A stretch of 64,000 nucleotides of DNA from Alphaproteobacteria bacterium (GTDB lineage: Bacteria; Pseudomonadota; Alphaproteobacteria; Bin95), in assembly GCA_965205265.1 (NCBI GenBank), contig CBDBGH010000003.1, forward strand, positions 5,184,001 to 5,248,000, in the 5' to 3' direction. Both the position numbers and the translations under genes were made by a program. Positions 4,414-47,698 of the stretch are shown one piece after another; position 1 is the first letter of the stretch, and the number at the start of each line of letters is the position of its first letter. The notes beneath the pieces were generated by a model. It was not told the DNA's origin. It did not search any database and saw only the letters and a list, made by a program, of their open reading frames with translations.

Positions 4414-5661
4414 TCAGGGTTCCGGCGTATCGGGCGACGCCTTGCGCCCGTGCTTCAGCGGCCAGTCATTCTGGCTTGCAACAGCCCGGTGCGTGCGCAG
4501 AACGGCATAACTCTCCGGCTCGGTCTCTCCCCGCAGCCGCCAGTACAGCAGGTCCCTGTCCCGGTCGAAGCCGTACCATTCCCGTCTGGCCCAGTCATTG
4601 GAGGCGTAAGCGCGGGGAGCCTTGCCGTCGGCATCCTTCACATCGATGGCGGCGCCGCCGTCAAGCAGACCGTGCGCGGCGCCATACCGCTCTTCCATCA
4701 CCGCCAAGTGCAGGGCCGTGCGCCCCTGCGCATCGGGGGCATCGACCGGCGCTCCAGCCGCCAGCAGCGCGGCAATCCCGGCGACATCCCCCTGGACGGC
4801 GGCGATATGGAGGTCCGTGAACCCCCAGGCGATGATCGGGGTCGGATTCCGGCTGTCTGCGGAGCGGGCCACCACCCGGAAAGCCGTGTTGCGTAGGGCG
4901 TCGGTCACCTGACGGTCGATTTCGTCGGACGCCGGGCCGCCGCCCGGCCGATGCCGTATGGCGACGGCGCGCGGGACATTCACCGCGGCGCGGTGAAGCG
5001 CCCCGCCGAACCCGAGCAGGGCGTCGGCATGGCGGGCCATCTCCCAGTTGGCGTTCGCTCTCCTTCCGGAGTCCACCAGGGCGCGGGCCGAGAGCAGGGG
5101 GTCCCCGGTCAACATGCTGTGGGCGATGAGGGCCGCGGCTCCCGAGCGGTATTTCCCCTGCATGCAGTGGATGAGCATCGAGGGCGGCGGGCCGTCCTTC
5201 GCCGAGTCCATCCACTGGCGAAAGAACGCGATCAGGCCGCCGACATTGTCCGCGTCCGGAGAATGGGCGCCGCGCCCGTCACTGCGCTGGTCGTCATCGT
5301 CGATACGCGCATGATGCATGCGCAGGCCGGACTGCCCGGCCGCCCGAAACGCCTCCCATTCCTCATCCATGTCGACCTGCACGACACTTGCGAGAAAGCG
5401 GATCTCGGGGTGCTCCTCCAGCACCTCGACGACCTCGTTCATGGCGCAGATGTAGATGGCGGGCGAGGTGTCCGCATAGAGCCGTTCGATCTCCGCGGCG
5501 ATGCGGTCCCCCTCCGCAATCTCTTCGGGGCTGAAAGGCCGTCCTTCCTGCTTCCGGTATTCGATCGATCCGGGCCCGATCCGGCTGCTGTCGATCAGAG
5601 CGCGGGCGGAGGGCCGGTGGAACATTCTCACTCCAGGGCCTCCAGGCGTCCTCGTATTCAT
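4414..5661 (-). CDS. Protein-tyrosine-phosphatase-like (CX5R) domain fused to ankyrin repeats
   Basis: LIHCMQGKYRS P-loop; ankyrin motifs TDLHIAA and GRTALHLAV. Confidence 0.75.
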   Translation of the reverse strand: MNTRTPGGPGVRMFHRPSARALIDSSRIGPGSIEYRKQEGRPFSPEEIAEGDRIAAEIERLYADTSPAIYICAMNEVVEVLEEHPEIRFLASVVQVDMDEEWEAFRAAGQSGLRMHHARIDDDDQRSDGRGAHSPDADNVGGLIAFFRQWMDSAKDGPPPSMLIHCMQGKYRSGAAALIAHSMLTGDPLLSARALVDSGRRANANWEMARHADALLGFGGALHRAAVNVPRAVAIRHRPGGGPASDEIDRQVTDALRNTAFRVVARSADSRNPTPIIAWGFTDLHIAAVQGDVAGIAALLAAGAPVDAPDAQGRTALHLAVMEERYGAAHGLLDGGAAIDVKDADGKAPRAYASNDWARREWYGFDRDRDLLYWRLRGETEPESYAVLRTHRAVASQNDWPLKHGRKASPDTPEP

Positions 5662-5888
5662 GGCGTCGAACGCACCTCGCCAGCTTCGATCCGGCTGCCC
5701 GTGAAATCGGCCCCTGCCATGGCGGCCCTGCGGAACCGGTAGGCGGACAGGGGTGCGCCCCGGAAGATGGCTCCTGTCAGATCGACATCCGGGAGTTCGA
5801 GGCCCTCAAGATCTTGCTCGGAGAAGTCAGTGCCGCGGAAATCATGTACGCCCGTAGCGAAGCGCTCCAGAAGCTCCTGCGGCGTCAT
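5658..5888 (-). CDS. Short or truncated pentapeptide repeat protein
   Basis: MTPQELLERFATGVHDF cap plus about 10 repeats; ATGA overlaps with both neighbours. Confidence 0.65.
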   Translation of the reverse strand: MTPQELLERFATGVHDFRGTDFSEQDLEGLELPDVDLTGAIFRGAPLSAYRFRRAAMAGADFTGSRIEAGEVRSTP

Positions 5889-6394
5889 CCGGTTGCGCTT
5901 CCGTCGCCCTGCGGAGAGGGTTCCGGCAGGCCGCCTCCTGCATCGAGCGGGGACGACTGAGGCGTGTCCCCGCCGCTCTCATGCTCGATGTGACGCGTAT
6001 AGAAGTCGATTTCGGCACCGGCCGGGGTGATCTTGAACGCCCCGAAGGACCCGTCATCCAGTTCCCAGCCGGAATGCTCGAGAAACAGATAGTCCATGCA
6101 GTAACGGTCAATGGCGTCGTCCAGGTCCATCGGCCCGAGGGCGGTTCGCTCGGCATCGGGCGAATACGGCGGCCCCCCGCTGATCGTCTGCAATCCCTCG
6201 ATTATCCTCTGCGTGAGAGGAATGTCCGGAGGGGAGGTGATGATCTCCTCGACCATTCCGTTGTCCCCTTCTCCGTTGAACCGGGCCGTGATCTCGTCAA
6301 TGCCGCTTGCCTGCATGGTCTCGATTATGAGAGCCAGGTTGTGGCGGCTCGCAATCCGGGCGGGAAGGGGCTGTTGCTCCTGAAGGTCGTTCAT
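5885..6394 (-). CDS. DUF6878-like protein
   Basis: FNGEGDNGMV and HSGWELDDGSFG motifs; tail LPEPSP. Confidence 0.65.
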   Translation of the reverse strand: MNDLQEQQPLPARIASRHNLALIIETMQASGIDEITARFNGEGDNGMVEEIITSPPDIPLTQRIIEGLQTISGGPPYSPDAERTALGPMDLDDAIDRYCMDYLFLEHSGWELDDGSFGAFKITPAGAEIDFYTRHIEHESGGDTPQSSPLDAGGGLPEPSPQGDGSATG

Positions 6395-6470
6395 GCTTCC
6401 GCTTCTCCTGATTGTCGGCCGGGACCGGGAGAACTATTGCGCGGATGTCTGAAATTCCCAACGGGCTGGT

Positions 6471-8528
6471 TCAGCGGCGGTCCCGGACCGCAGTGACCGC
6501 GATCCCCTCGGCGGTCATTGCGTCGGCGAGTCCGGGGAAAAGACGGAACATCGCCTGCGAAACTGAGACCGGGTTCCGGGAACGGCCTTGTTGCGCCTCG
6601 AGGAAAGCGACCTGGGCGGCCTTCCGGACCTTCCGGGCTTTCCGGGGCCTGTAGGGGCGCCGGAAAGCCCGGGCGTTCAGGGCGGCGACGACAATGTCCG
6701 CCGCCTTGCGTTCGCGCACTGTCGGCTGACGGTTCCTGTAGCCGGCATGTTCGACCTGCCTCCAGGGTTCCGCCCCCATTTCATCGGGCTCCTCCCTTTC
6801 CCTTACGCCAAGCAGCGTCGAACGGCCGTCCTTCCAGAACAGCCGGTACACATGGAGTGGATGGCGGGGTGCGATGCAGTCCGCGATCATGCCGCCTGCG
6901 CAGTTCCGTTCGTTCTTCCCCGCGCCTATCAGCGCCCGACCGTCGGTAACCGGCTGAACCGAGAATCCGGCACGGCGTTCCAGGATCGGTTCCGGGCTCA
7001 TCCAGCAAACCGCAGCGAATCGCCCGGCTTCCGCTTCCGCCGTTTCCCGGCTCAAGACGTCGCCAGCCCAAGCCCAGCGCCTCGCCAGGTCGGCAAGCTG
7101 CCGGAAACTGCCGCCAGTGCCGTCAAGGCGGCCCCACAGGCGGTCCCATACCCGCGTGGCAGGATCCTCGGCCTCAGCGGTGAGATTGAACCATCGCTGG
7201 GCATCCCCGGTCTCGGGGGATTGCGTTTCGACGATGATCTGCCCGATCCGGTGTCTTGCGTCCCGCATCTCCCGGGCCACGAATCTTGCCTCCGAGATTG
7301 CCGCGATGGCCACCCTCCTGGGCGTCGGGCGAAGGGGGACTCCGTAGCGGGCGCAATCGCGCTCCAGCCCCTTCGGTGCCTCTTCGGGGTCTTCCAAGGC
7401 TCTCAACAGACGGCGGCCGTCTGTCCGGAAAATCGCGCACGCCCGTTCGAGGTCGGATCCGGAGAATCCGAAATCCCGAATTACGGTCCCGGCCAGGGCC
7501 GCCTCTTCCGGTCCTTCCCCGTCACGCCGCTTGCCGGGATGATCGAGCAGGTTCCGGGCCCAGCGCATCGCGGATCTCTGGCTGTTGCGTGAAAACGCCC
7601 CGCGGGACATGACGCCGGGGCCTGTCATCGCGGCTTCATAGCGCCGGACCCAGTCCCGATTGACACCGAAGACCTGTCGGCGGCGCCCTGTGCTTGCCTC
7701 GGCAAAACCCGTCTCGCCGGCGTCTCCCGGGCCGGACCGGGTAACCGACCGGCATTCCCTTTCCAGAACGGCGAGGATATCGCGCTCGCGCGCGCCCTGC
7801 TCCAGCATCGGGCGGATGTCCTCGCACCACAGGCGAGGATTCTCGCCGCGCACGGCGAGCGCAAAGCCCATGGGATAACGCAGGGCAAATCGGCGGGTGG
7901 CCATGCCGAGCGTGTCGTCGCGCCACAGTGCCTCGGCCACCCCGATCGCAACCCAGCCTGCATGGTCGAGTATTGCCATGGCCTGGAACATGGCCTCGAC
8001 ACGCCGAGGTTCGCCTGCGGCCTCGGCCAGAGACCGGCGGGCTGAGTGAAAGCGCGCCGCGAGCTGGCGGCGCAGCACCGCAACGGTCGCACGGGCGCGC
8101 CGGTTGCCCCATCCCCTGAGGATCGTGAAGAGGTGCGTGTCGATGCGCCAGGCGACCTCCTCCGCCGCCGGCATGTTGTTCCCGATCCCGCGACAGGCCG
8201 CAGCCCGGACGCTCCAGGCGCGGCACTCCGCTGCCGTTGGCCAATCGCGCAGACCGCCGGTGTCCTCCCCGAACCAGCCTGGCCGGACGCTCTCGCAGCG
8301 CGCGATCTCCTCGCCGGCGGGGAAAACCCTGATGACCGCGGCATCGGCCGGGCCCCTCAGGCCATATCCGTTGTGGAGACGCGGGACAGGCCAGCTGAAC
8401 CGCCCGCCTCCCAGTTCCCACGGCAGACGGTCCAGCACCCGCATCCCCCTCGGACGATTCCCGACATTGTCCCGGCGCAGGTTGTCCACCGCCAGGAGGT
8501 TGATTTCGAGGGGGCCTTCAAGACTCAC
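6471..8528 (-). CDS. Large hypothetical protein with C-terminal PcfJ-like domain
   Basis: 685 aa; PVTDGRALIGAGKNERNCAGG resembles the PcfJ LxxEGxxMxHCV motif. Confidence 0.55.
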   Translation of the reverse strand: MSLEGPLEINLLAVDNLRRDNVGNRPRGMRVLDRLPWELGGGRFSWPVPRLHNGYGLRGPADAAVIRVFPAGEEIARCESVRPGWFGEDTGGLRDWPTAAECRAWSVRAAACRGIGNNMPAAEEVAWRIDTHLFTILRGWGNRRARATVAVLRRQLAARFHSARRSLAEAAGEPRRVEAMFQAMAILDHAGWVAIGVAEALWRDDTLGMATRRFALRYPMGFALAVRGENPRLWCEDIRPMLEQGARERDILAVLERECRSVTRSGPGDAGETGFAEASTGRRRQVFGVNRDWVRRYEAAMTGPGVMSRGAFSRNSQRSAMRWARNLLDHPGKRRDGEGPEEAALAGTVIRDFGFSGSDLERACAIFRTDGRRLLRALEDPEEAPKGLERDCARYGVPLRPTPRRVAIAAISEARFVAREMRDARHRIGQIIVETQSPETGDAQRWFNLTAEAEDPATRVWDRLWGRLDGTGGSFRQLADLARRWAWAGDVLSRETAEAEAGRFAAVCWMSPEPILERRAGFSVQPVTDGRALIGAGKNERNCAGGMIADCIAPRHPLHVYRLFWKDGRSTLLGVREREEPDEMGAEPWRQVEHAGYRNRQPTVRERKAADIVVAALNARAFRRPYRPRKARKVRKAAQVAFLEAQQGRSRNPVSVSQAMFRLFPGLADAMTAEGIAVTAVRDRR

Positions 8529-43467: not shown

Positions 43468-43865
43468 CTATCCAGAGCCTCTGTGTTCCGGCCACACATT
43501 GAAGGCTGTGACCCTGGCGACCGCGTTGAGCATCCCGGCGGCTATCCAGAGCCTCTGTGTTCCGGCCACACATTGAAGGTGAGGGCTGACCGGTGAAGGC
43601 GTCGGCATTCCTCGGCCTATCCGGAGCCTCTGCGCTCCGGCCGCATTGAAGGTTTTCCCTGTCGCCCGGCTAAGTCCTCGAGCGCGCGGTCTATCCGGAG
43701 CCTCTGTGCTCCGGCCACATTGAAGGTGAACGCGGGACAGGAATGCGATAACGAGAAGGCCGGGTTATTCGGAGCCTCTGCGCTCCGGCCACACATTGAA
43801 GCAGTCGAAAAGCGGAGGATGCGGTATGGCAAGCGAATTCTGTCCGGAGCACAGGTTTCGGAAGG
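43468..43865 (+). CRISPR. Orphan CRISPR array: 5 repeats, a degenerate 6th, and 5 spacers; type I-G(I-U)-like repeat
   Basis: Repeats start at 43468, 43542, 43617, 43691, 43765 and (degenerate) 43840; consensus CTATCCGGAGCCTCTGYGCTCCGGCCAC(AC)ATTGAAG with CCGGAGC/GCTCCGG hairpin; unique 37-39-nt spacers. Confidence 0.88.
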
Positions 43866-43934
43866 GTTGGTCAGTGGCACGATCCTCCGCTATTCTATGA
43901 GCGGCACCTGCACGAACTGTCAGGAGGGACCCAG

Positions 43935-45081
43935 ATGAATGCGGAAGCGTTGGCCTTGGCGGCCGAGATTCGCGACTGCCTCGTGGTAATCGGGGACTCT
44001 CTTTAGCCGGGCGGCGTCTGCGGACCGGCTGGCGGTCCTGGATGCTCAAGCCGAAAATCCCGAACTCTGGAACGACCCGGCGCATGCCCGGGCGGTGATG
44101 CGCGAGCGACGGCATCTGGCCGGAAGGCTGGATGACCGGCGGCGCATGGAACAGGCGCTCCAGGACGCGCTCACGCTATGCGCTCTGGGCGAAGAGGAGG
44201 GAGATCCGGCGATCGTGGCCGAAGCCGCGGCCGGACTCCGGGCGCTGTGCCGGCAGGCCCGTCAGCGACGGCTCGAAACGCTGTTGTCCGGCGAAGCTGA
44301 CGGCAATGACTGCTACCTGGAAGTCACTGCCGGGGCCGGAGGCACGGAAGCCCAGGCCTGGGCGTGCATGCTGCTGCGCATGTATCTGCGCTGGGCTGGG
44401 GCCAAGGGCCATGAGATCGAGTGGCTGGAAGAGAGCCCCGGCAGTGAGGGAGGCCTCAAGTCGGCTTCGGTACTTGTCAGCGGCGTAAACGCCTATGGCT
44501 GGCTGAAGACCGAGAGCGGCGTTCATCGCCTTTCGCGGATATCGCCGTTCGACAGGCGGGCCCGGCGTCAGACGAGCTTTGCCTCGGCCTGGATATGGCC
44601 GGCCGTCGACGAGGAACGGGTCGGGATCGAGGTCGATGAAAGGGACCTCAGGATCGACCGCTACCGGGCGTCCGGGGCGGGCGGCCAGCACGTCAACAGG
44701 CGCGAGTCGGCGGTGCGGATCACGCACCTGCCTACCGGGACGGTCGTGCAGTGCCAGGACGAGCGCTCCCAGCACCGCAACCGGTCGACGGCGATGTCCA
44801 TGCTGAAGGCGCGGCTCTATGAGCGCGAACTTCGGGAACGGGAGGCGCGGGCGGCAGCGGAGGCCGCCGCAAAACCCGAGATCGCATGGGGCCGCCAGAT
44901 CCGGTCATACGTGCTTCAGCCGCAGCAACTGGTGAAAGACCTGCGGACCGGCCTGGAGAGGAATGACGCCGGGTCCGTCCTCGACGGGGATATAGACCGG
45001 TTCCTCAGTGCGGCGCTGGCGGCGCGGAGTGCGTATGCGGTGCGGGCGAGGCAGCCGGCTTTCAGCTTGACGACGGCTTGA
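43935..45081 (+). CDS. prfB: Peptide chain release factor 2-like protein; +1 frameshift at CTT TAG C (44001-44007)
   Basis: GGAGG RBS; 23 codons, then CTT TAG; +1 frame continues with ENPELWNDP, GGTEAQ, SPF and GGQ motifs; last residues supplied by IS66. Confidence 0.9.
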
Positions 45082-46663
45082 AGTTCCAGGGAAGCAGTTC
45101 ATCGAGGCGGTCATTGGGATGACCGGCTGCGATGGCTTCGAGTGTGGCCTTGAGCCAGGCGTGTGGCTCGACCTCGTTCAACTTCGCCGTCTGGATGAGG
45201 GATGCTATGCGTCCCCAGGCGGCGGCGCCGTCGTCGTGACCGGCGAACAAGGCGTTTTTCCGTGTAAGGACCACGGGCCGCAGGCTGTTTTCGACGGCAT
45301 TGCTATCCATTTCGACGCGGCCGTCGTCGAGGAAGATCCGGAGGCCGTCCCAATGACGGGCGATATAGGCGAGCTTTTCGCCGAGCCGGGACTTGGGCGA
45401 GACGCGGACGCGCTGCTGCGTCAGCCATTCGCCGAAGGCCTCGACCAGGGGCGCGGAGCGCGTTTGCCGTTCGGCGAGGCGCAGCTCCGGCGGGCTGCCG
45501 CGTATATCGGCCTCGATGGCGTAGAGTTCGGCGATCCGGCGTAAGCCCTCGGCTGCGATTTCCGAGCCGCTGCTGTCGTGGATTTCGCGAAGCCGGCGCC
45601 GACAATGGGCCCAACAGTAGGCCAGCCGCAGCGGCGCGCCGCCCTTGCGGCTCGGTCCGGCCAGCCGGCTGTAGCCGGCATAGCCATCGACCTGCAGGAT
45701 GCCGTCGAAGCCATCAAGGAAGCGCTCCGCATGTTCGCCGCCGCGCCCGGGGGCGTAGAAGTAGACGACGCCCGGTGGATCGGGCCCGCCCCAGGAACGG
45801 TCGTCGCGGGCCAGCGCCCATAACCAGCCGGTCTTCGTCCTGCCGCGGCCCGGATCGAGCACCGGCGCCCGCGTCTCATCCATGAAGAGCTTGGACGACC
45901 GTTTCAGGTGCCGTGCCAGGCGGTCAACCACCGGCCTGAGGTGGAACGAGGCCTTGCCGACCCAGCCGGCCAGCGTCGAGCGGTCCAGATCGAGGCCTGA
46001 GCGGGCATAGATCTGCGTCTGACGGTGCAACGGACAATGATCGGCGTATTTCGAGACCAGCACATGCGCGATAGCGCCTTCGGTCGGCAGCGCCCCTTCG
46101 ATCAGCCGGGCCGGCGCCGGCGCCTGGGTCACGCCTTCCTCACACCGGCGGCAGGCGTATTTCGGGCGCACCGTGACGATCACCCGCAACTGCGCCGGCA
46201 CGATGTCCAGGCGCTCCGTGCGATCCTCGCCGATCTTCGCCATTTCCCCGCAGCCGCAGGGGCAGAGCGTGCTCTCCGGCTCGATCACCTGCTCGATCCG
46301 CTCCAGGTGGTCCGGCAAATGGCCGAGATTGCGCGCCGGGCGAGGACGCTTCGGCGATTGGGCCGGCGCCGGATCGGCCGGCGTGATCGCTTCCTCGATC
46401 TCTTCCGCCGCCGCAACAAGGTCCTCGAACGCCAGCTGGCGCTCGTCCGCCGTCAGCTTCTCCGACCTTTTCCCGTAGATAACGCGCTGCAGCTCGCGCA
46501 CCAGGTGTTCGAGACGGCGGATGCGCTCGGACTGCGCCTCATTGCGGTCCGTCAACACCTCGTTCTCGGTGCGAAGCGTCTCCAGCGCCATGATCGCCTG
46601 CACCGCCGCTTCCCGCTGTTCGGGTGTCAGCGTTTCAAGGTCGATCTCCGCAAGCGCAGCCAT
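45062..46663 (-). CDS. tnpC: IS66 transposase TnpC
   Basis: CPCGC zinc ribbon, MDET, QVDGY, CWAHCRR and DSNAVENSLR motifs. Confidence 0.92.
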   Translation of the reverse strand: MAALAEIDLETLTPEQREAAVQAIMALETLRTENEVLTDRNEAQSERIRRLEHLVRELQRVIYGKRSEKLTADERQLAFEDLVAAAEEIEEAITPADPAPAQSPKRPRPARNLGHLPDHLERIEQVIEPESTLCPCGCGEMAKIGEDRTERLDIVPAQLRVIVTVRPKYACRRCEEGVTQAPAPARLIEGALPTEGAIAHVLVSKYADHCPLHRQTQIYARSGLDLDRSTLAGWVGKASFHLRPVVDRLARHLKRSSKLFMDETRAPVLDPGRGRTKTGWLWALARDDRSWGGPDPPGVVYFYAPGRGGEHAERFLDGFDGILQVDGYAGYSRLAGPSRKGGAPLRLAYCWAHCRRRLREIHDSSGSEIAAEGLRRIAELYAIEADIRGSPPELRLAERQTRSAPLVEAFGEWLTQQRVRVSPKSRLGEKLAYIARHWDGLRIFLDDGRVEMDSNAVENSLRPVVLTRKNALFAGHDDGAAAWGRIASLIQTAKLNEVEPHAWLKATLEAIAAGHPNDRLDELLPWNFKPSSS

Positions 46664-46718
46664 GGCTCGCTTGGTAGCACAGTGTCGCGGAGCCGGACGC
46701 CCCGATCCACCGGCTGAG

Positions 46719-47072
46719 TCACTCCGCCTCAGCCGGGCGCCGCGCCGACAGCGCCCGCACGCGACGCCAGTCCAGGCCCGCGAACAAGGCCTCGAACTGC
46801 GCATGGCTCAGCGACATCACCCCGTCGCGGATCGCCGGCCATACAAAGCCCTGGTCCTCCAGACGCTTGTAGATCAGCACCAGCCCGGTCCCGTCCCAGA
46901 AGACCAGCTTCAGCCTGTCAGCTCGCCTCGATCGAAAGACGTATACCGTGCCGGTGAACGGGTCCCGCCGCAGCGCGCCCTTCACATGCGCGACAAGGCC
47001 GTCGTGCTGGCGGCGGAAGTCGACGGGCTTCGTTGCGACAACGATCCGCACCCGGTTCGACGGGAAGATCAT
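46719..47072 (-). CDS. tnpB: IS66 accessory protein TnpB
   Basis: PVDFRRQHDGL and KLVFWDGTGLVLIYKRLE motifs. Confidence 0.9.
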   Translation of the reverse strand: MIFPSNRVRIVVATKPVDFRRQHDGLVAHVKGALRRDPFTGTVYVFRSRRADRLKLVFWDGTGLVLIYKRLEDQGFVWPAIRDGVMSLSHAQFEALFAGLDWRRVRALSARRPAEAE

Positions 47073-47458
47073 GACAGCGCATTCAGCGCAGACACGATCT
47101 CCGCCAGCCGGCCCGCCGGCACCGCCGCATCCAGACGGACCGTAACCCGGTCCAGAACCACTTCCAGACACCCACCGTTCGCCTCGGCGCCGTGCCCTTC
47201 AGCCCGGACCACCAGCGGCGCAAACTCCACTGCCTCGTCCGCTGCAGGCAAAACCAGGCGACCCTCCCGCGCCTTGCGACGCCAGTCCGACAGATGGCTT
47301 GGGCGAAGATCGTAACGCCGTGCTACCGAGGCCACCCTCGCGCCAGGCTCAAGCGTCTCCGCTACAATCCGCGCCTTCAACTCTTCCGGCCAGCGACGGC
47401 GACCCTTCACTCCACCGATCACCTCGACCGGGCTGAGAAACTCCGCAGTGCGCTCCAT
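47069..47458 (-). CDS. tnpA: IS66 accessory protein TnpA (HTH)
   Basis: RRRWPEELKARIVAETLEPGARVASVARRY motif. Confidence 0.88.
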   Translation of the reverse strand: MERTAEFLSPVEVIGGVKGRRRWPEELKARIVAETLEPGARVASVARRYDLRPSHLSDWRRKAREGRLVLPAADEAVEFAPLVVRAEGHGAEANGGCLEVVLDRVTVRLDAAVPAGRLAEIVSALNALS

Positions 47459-47622
47459 GGAGAAACTCCTCTACGTCCTCCCGAACGTAGCGGAGTCTCA
47501 AATCCCGAGACCGAGCGGAAGGTGCCCCTGCCGCATCGCTTACCGGAGTGCAGCGGGGTCCGGGTAATGGTGGGGGTGTGCGGCAGCAAGGGCGCCAGGA
47601 GACCGTTTGCAAGAAGTCCCTT

Positions 47623-47698
47623 TGGAAGGCCCGCCGGGACTTGAACCCGGAACCTGGCGGTTAAGAGCCGCCCGCTCTGCCGTTTGAGCTACAGGCCT
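47623..47698 (-). tRNA. tRNA-Lys (anticodon CTT), CCA encoded
   Basis: 76-nt cloverleaf: acceptor AGGCCTG/CGGGCCT, D arm GCTC/GAGC, anticodon arm GGCGG-CTCTTAA-CCGCC, T loop TTCAAGT. Confidence 0.92.

Follow-up and report, generated by a model that had tools for sequence, protein, structure and literature searches.

Bacteria divide the reading of stop codons between RF1 and RF2, and a normal RF2 does not read UAG; the RF2 of Lak phages must not read TAG. D143 in helix alpha5 of RF2 acts in reading codon position 2 (residue numbering follows E. coli RF2 throughout), a role for which no description was found in the literature searched. The Val of the HRLVR motif (V202) presumably corresponds to V190 in Thermus numbering. 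According to the available part of PMC5776981, V190 makes an unfavourable contact with the G carbonyl at codon position 3, and RF1 has Q185; the accessible text of PMC11903333 identifies S205 as a residue whose change weakens UGA reading. A survey of NCBI-annotated prfB genes in RefSeq representative genomes reported no TAG at the prfB frameshift site among 8,164 genomes that use frameshifting (PMC12421855, available text). Laboratory attempts to obtain a UAG-reading RF2 involved E167K, E170K, E172K, K177R, D329A/G and R213I; alterations of the 167-177 loop and of D329 led to UAG reading at the cost of toxic release at the tryptophan codon UGG (PMC7530605, as far as its text was accessible). 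Other accessory class-1 release factors, PrfH (RFH) and ArfB, have been linked to rescue (PMC6514570, available part), and the TAG-recoded Lak and Agate phages carry an RF2 on a large mobile element (bioRxiv 10.1101/2021.08.26.457843, available part).

Here, we analysed a second prfB in a stretch of 64,000 nucleotides (the window; positions 5,184,001 to 5,248,000 of contig CBDBGH010000003.1, assembly GCA_965205265.1) from an alphaproteobacterial genome that also carries ordinary copies of prfA and of prfB, the latter with the site CTT TGA C. The features of the locus are collected in Table 1. The gene product is 70% identical to that of the canonical housekeeping prfB. It reached 439 bits against the RF2 model TIGR00020 (cutoff 370) and remained below the cutoffs of the models for prfA (242 bits, cutoff 423; SPF is found instead of PxT), PrfH (111 bits, cutoff 167) and ArfB (41 bits, cutoff 100). 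By sequence, the product is an RF2 and not an RF1, PrfH or ArfB; it shares with the latter two the status of an accessory class-1 release factor, and unlike them it is a full four-domain RF2, far below both model cutoffs. AlphaFold returned a pLDDT of 47 from a two-row alignment. We propose that this gene encodes an accessory RF2, catalytically intact as judged by its motifs, with a broadened specificity, whose synthesis would report spare UAG-termination capacity; we give this reading a probability of about 45%. It may thus be a natural RF2 that reads UAG.

Table 1 Features of the second prfB locus, in window positions
Feature	Position	Strand	Detail
CRISPR-type mini-array	43468..43875	+	5 repeats ending ATTGAAG and a degenerate sixth; directly upstream of the gene
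Shine-Dalgarno (SD) AGGAGG of the start codon	43921..43926	+	anti-SD duplex -10.8 kcal/mol
First coding segment	43935..44003	+	ATG at 43935; 23 codons, frame 0
Internal SD-like GGGGAC	43992..43997	+	-5.7 kcal/mol, against -9.5 kcal/mol in the host genus
Frameshift site CTT TAG C	44001..44007	+	prfB-type +1; CTT (codon 23) 44001-44003, amber sensor codon TAG 44004-44006, C 44007
Main RF2 frame (+1)	44005..45081	+	open, 358 residues; SPF and GGQ intact
Helix alpha5 Asp to Ala (D143A)	44356..44358	+	GCC; GAC in housekeeping prfB
A174G	44449..44451	+	in the 167-177 loop; RF1 residue
HRLVR Val to Ser (V202S)	44533..44535	+	TCG; GTG in housekeeping prfB
RRHTS His to Gln (H214Q)	44569..44571	+	CAT in housekeeping prfB; not diagnostic
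Tyr to Gln (about 330-331)	44923..44925	+	RF1 residue; adjoins the D329 position
IS66	45033..47543	-	inserted five codons before the original stop of the second prfB
IS66 target duplication	45025-45032 and 47544-47551		8 bp
Original TAA of the second prfB	47565-47567		beyond IS66
tRNA-Lys(CTT)	47626..47698	-	just downstream of the original end of the second prfB

Comparison with the canonical autoregulated prfB, as presented in the available text of PMC12421855, indicated that domains, SPF and GGQ motifs, site position, slippery CTTT, SD-like spacer and the C after the stop are all the same. The second prfB departs from it by its sensor stop, TAG in place of the canonical TGA or TAA, by being a second copy on a mobile element and by D143A, A174G, V202S and the Tyr to Gln change near 330. 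Since a strong SD lies before codon 1, the full protein would need the frameshift; at the three internal starts tested, the anti-SD duplex amounted to -1.7 to -3.1 kcal/mol. The first coding segment matches the housekeeping prfB at 12 of 23 residues and 68% of the bases with no indel, and shows no codon-position pattern of constraint (15, 16 and 16 of 23 by position). The internal SD is weaker than that of the host, yet within the range of canonical sites, as L117 and four cyanobacterial loci have canonical prfB sites with an internal SD of -4.0 kcal/mol.

The original prediction had described TAG at a prfB-type frameshift site, HRLSR and GGTEAQAW in place of the usual motifs, and intact SPF and GGQ. 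Each of these was found, every named base being present, and the TAG was identical in the assembled contigs of four public runs from three studies (P1, P2 and P3), a comparison made on contigs, not raw reads, and with one run possibly corresponding to the source sample. Two of these runs (P1 and P2) spanned 43600-45061 with zero differences, and the contigs of the other two (P1 and P3) matched across the TAG. At the 3' end, the IS66 copy, 99.96-100% identical to three chromosomal copies, changed the last four residues into fifteen and spared all domains; the last 15 residues of the present product come from IS66, which corrects the earlier description. The gene's own stop was TAA originally and is TGA at present.

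In CreTA-like systems, the guide recognises the toxin promoter through its seed and a PAM. Spacer 5 of the mini-array (43807-43820; spacer positions 5-18) is complementary at 13 of 14 positions to 43882-43895, a possible -10 region, and 3 of 400 random stretches of the element match equally well. None of the 58 spacers of the element had a seed-anchored match near the second prfB. A role of the mini-array as a CRISPR guide for the gene was not supported, there being no seed match, nor was an SD-switch link between the two. The locus is surrounded by a cluster of at least nine pentapeptide-repeat genes, together with ankyrin-repeat genes (window positions 28831-59544).

Phylogenetic analysis showed that the product nests among RF2 and pairs, on a long stem, with P0004 (SH-aLRT 100), a 76% identical homolog on a 302,850-bp contig with the same Ala, Ser and Gln (D143A, V202S and H214Q); the pair is sister to the prfB of the host genus (SH-aLRT 93). 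This clade has two known members, and the sensor codon was read in the second prfB alone. The P0004 gene was not recovered by pattern scans of 37 family genomes, 81 genome-contig stretches and 19 metagenome-contig stretches. Viral contigs gave one degenerate match and no related locus, the 120 best matches of a fragment search included no additional HRLSR protein (61 had Val and 59 lacked the motif), and plasmid and phage collections contained no close relative (best 61%); of four records examined from these collections, two are from Bacillus and show a chromosomal secA-prfB neighbourhood.

The amino-acid path leading to the second prfB product is about four times longer than that of the housekeeping protein (0.49 and 0.13). 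Between the two genes, dN/dS was 0.22 overall and 0.17 in the core with dS near 1, and no internal stop or frame-breaking indel occurs over 343 codons. Conservation was assessed at 169 columns conserved at 90% or more in 135 canonical RF2: 11 were changed in both the second prfB product and P0004, 10 of them to the same residue, with 3 private changes in the former and 12, including T139M, in the latter. The changes include the GGQ-proximal T257R, and the switch loop is also altered. These patterns fit a retained, faster-evolving paralogue better than decay; P0004 looks more relaxed, and its private changes fit relaxed selection.

Alignment of 20 RF1 and 13 RF2 sequences yielded 37 columns that separate the two families. 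The second prfB product is RF2-like at 30 of these and has the RF1 residue at 4. In agreement with the original prediction, V202 and D143 are both among the 37: D143 is Asp in 99% of the 135 canonical RF2 and Leu in 20/20 RF1, and V202 is Val in all canonical RF2 rows and Gln in 20/20 RF1. A174 is Gly in 19/20 RF1 and Ala in 13/13 RF2, and the Tyr near 330 is Gln in 20/20 RF1 and Tyr in 13/13 RF2. The discriminating-column changes common to P0004 are D143A, A174G, V202S, the Tyr to Gln change and one that looks neutral; the fraction of shared changes located at discriminating columns (4/11) looks close to chance. SPF, R213, S205 and T215 are retained. RRQTS is present as predicted; its interpretation as an unusual, matched decoding change did not hold, as H214Q moves away from RF1, which has His, and is common in ordinary RF2 (16/122 scanned proteins, query copies included, and 60/151 rows in another set). 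About 65 RF2 that retain D143 and appear to be housekeeping factors have Tyr, Ala, Gly, Glu or Asp in place of V202; the loss of Val at this position is therefore not by itself a sign of UAG reading. Tyr occurs at this position (HRLYR), together with D143, in many Acidimicrobiia RF2 (L034 and about 40 similar loci), and Ala occurs in those of Patescibacteria and some Bacteroidota. Similarly to the laboratory-evolved factors of PMC7530605, in the part of that study available, the second prfB encodes a duplicated RF2 altered in the 167-177 loop (E172S and A174G) and beside D329; unlike them, it is natural, has V202 and D143 themselves hit, contains no tested allele and keeps R213.

The combination of V202S with D143A/N, a changed A174 and H214Q was also found in a phage-like RF2 group (L114, L118, L122, L128, P0127, P0128 and P0153). 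L129 belongs to the same clade with V202S and D143A/N, and tRNA clusters lie beside L114, on a 440-kb contig, and L129. In pattern and profile searches, D143 was lost in 9/11 HRLSR proteins, compared with 1/164 HRLVR proteins and 1/66 others (2/230), counted over rows that had to match both motifs and include non-independent kin. Most of the nine belong to the phage-like group, and three other V202S proteins keep D143. A single origin of this group and the second prfB/P0004 pair was rejected (p-AU 0.012; 24 rows, quick tree); D143A/N with V202S arose at least twice independently. Other RF2 arrangements were encountered: L117 (about 5275-7669, minus strand) contains two RF2 genes in tandem, a canonical one and a divergent one with V202S, each having CTT TGA C, and L072, L095, L119, L123, L125, L127, L132 and L031/L126 encode short RF2 derivatives with the codon-reading domain and no GGQ domain.

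A TAG sensor was not a regular companion of these changes. The site reads CTT TGA C in 30/30 other alphaproteobacterial prfB loci, with TAG in 0/30, and TGA in 6/6 other V202S genes with a readable site. Four of these six have D143A/N, and the four readable sites of the phage-like genes with D143A/N and V202S all have TGA. The original prediction that the sensor codon and the decoding residues co-evolved was only partly borne out: D143A and V202S are common to P0004 and recur in an unrelated lineage, whereas a necessary tie between them and the TAG sensor was not supported, the phage-like genes having retained TGA. In four Microcoleus/Oscillatoriales genomes (L039, L045, L087 and L093), a GGQ-less RF2 paralogue lies in tandem upstream of prfB and keeps SPF and a frameshift site (near 992, the prfB site being near 2141-2145). 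Its sensor is TGA once, TAA once and TAG twice, one copy having an internal stop; TAG can therefore arise by drift. These GGQ-less paralogues cannot regulate themselves by release. In the freely accessible literature searched, neither a catalytically intact prfB with a TAG sensor nor an accessory prfB paralogue of this kind was described. The second prfB, as assembled, departs from the rule that TAG does not serve as a prfB sensor.

A region of about 550 kb with atypical word use (about 4.75-5.30 Mb of contig C3) contains the gene. Among 105 proteins chosen from 254 candidates, we identified Dot/Icm-type transfer genes, own copies of DnaA, DnaB, DnaG, RpoD, GyrB, TopA, RecJ, ThyX and NrdJ, an RNA ligase, type I-G cas genes and toxin-antitoxin genes; the region also has 28 clustered tRNAs and a second tmRNA. 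We read it as a giant conjugative element collecting host genes. It is IS-rich, holds several drifting CRISPR-type mini-arrays and may account for part of the 7.28% contamination figure of the genome. Searches for element boundaries and att sites found none, and 36 other genomes of the family contained neither the prfB variant nor the element's DotM. Two stretches, C3 4632568-4659093 and 5407582-5463552, contain long, nearly identical copies (up to 21 kb) of sequence found elsewhere on the contig, which may be assembly joins. With our own gene caller, stops in the element were TGA 262, TAG 88 and TAA 19, and those of the chromosome 2313, 745 and 241; as this usage equals that of the host, the element is not TAG-recoded. 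No tRNA with a CTA anticodon (amber suppressor) was present among the 86 tRNAs of the genome. A role in enforcing amber termination against recoding, suggested originally, finds no local support in these counts. The Lak and Agate phages are TAG-recoded, whereas in the element TAG serves as a stop as often as in the host; D143 and V202, changed in the second prfB product, are both present in the Lak RF2, for which an in-frame frameshift stop was not observed.

Our preferred reading of a broadened RF2 is supported by the origin and context of the gene, its intact SPF and GGQ motifs, purifying selection, and changes that are shared with P0004 and convergent with the phage-like group. We hypothesize that the prfB of a forerunner of the host genus was taken up by a giant conjugative element and retained there as an accessory release factor with a loosened codon-reading head. 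Ribosomes starting at the ATG would pause at UAG after CUU, where host RF1 would usually terminate; when termination is slow, tRNA-Leu would slip +1 and the full protein would be produced. V202S may make G at codon position 3 acceptable by removing a hydrophobic penalty, assisted by A174G and the Tyr to Gln change near D329, and the loosened factor would read UAG besides UAA and probably UGA. D143A may weaken the reading of G at position 2; loss of D143 would pair with V202S because the former would limit the harmful release at UGG that the latter allows. If UAG is read, the site would form a feedback loop on total UAG-termination capacity, and the broadened head would then tolerate the TAG without requiring it. 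With host RF1 in the cell, the site would report total UAG capacity whatever the product reads. A wider proposal, that mobile elements repeatedly evolved an all-stop factor on the RF2 scaffold, in which V202S admits G and loss of D143 guards UGG, and that the sensor here followed to UAG, is speculative and on the unlikely side.

An RF2 of ordinary specificity (UAA and UGA) would account for the conserved SPF, R213 and T215 and for the RF2-like residues at 30/37 discriminating columns. Its sensor would have drifted to TAG because host RF2 made self-regulation unnecessary, so that expression would be low or set by host RF1, and the residue changes would reflect other adaptation to the mobile element. 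The drift to TAG and TAA in the cyanobacterial paralogues, the non-Val residues of housekeeping RF2 and the TGA of the phage-like relatives are consistent with this; the association of D143 loss and V202S, seen in two or more independent lineages, and the two shared changes to exactly the RF1 residue are harder to accommodate, and we consider such an ordinary factor unlikely. A full RF1-like switch (UAA and UAG, with UGA lost) and matched self-regulation is less likely than a broadened specificity and is, in our view, improbable. The TAG sensor, D143A and V202S point toward RF1 chemistry, A174G and the Tyr to Gln change are RF1 residues, and RF1-like specificity in an RF2 duplicate is predicted by PMC7530605 in its accessible text. 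The retained S205 is nevertheless tied to UGA reading (PMC11903333, available part), relatives with D143A/N and V202S keep TGA, and the gene's own stops, TAA and then TGA, do not suit a loss of UGA reading.

A different function was also considered, in which the factor, being lax in codon checking, would free stalled ribosomes from damaged or cleaved mRNA or compete with host factors; the TAG site would then act as a brake that holds back a toxic protein until stress releases it. The tmRNA, tRNA array, RNA ligase and toxin-antitoxin genes of the element are compatible with such a rescue or interfering factor, as are the changes reaching the switch loop and T257R, and loosened RF2 variants were toxic without the frameshift (PMC7530605, available part). 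Most of the decoding head is intact, however, the product has no ArfB-like tail and no RtcB or PrfH partner was seen adjoining, which makes this function doubtful at best. We give as little credence to a once-functional paralogue now decaying, with TAG, weak SD and IS66 as signs of recent neglect. The position of IS66 in the last codons of the gene, the IS-rich region and the long amino-acid path would fit decay. Against it stand the unbroken 343 codons at dS near 1, the 3 private changes at conserved columns and the sparing of all domains by IS66; the dN/dS near 1 that the original prediction associated with a decaying copy was not observed, the value being 0.22, and 10 rare changes are identical in P0004.

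Collectively, the data presented describe a natural RF2 duplicate with inherited and convergent changes, which offers a ready test of whether the UGG-toxicity barrier can be crossed, and of the roles of V202 and D143. If the all-stop reading is true, this would be the first feedback loop in nature through which a bacterial release factor senses UAG, and the collateral-toxicity trade-off that stalled laboratory evolution would have been solved. If it reads UAG, the factor would also be a candidate single release factor for the engineering of recoded organisms. Giant conjugative elements may adjust not only the supply of tRNAs but also termination.
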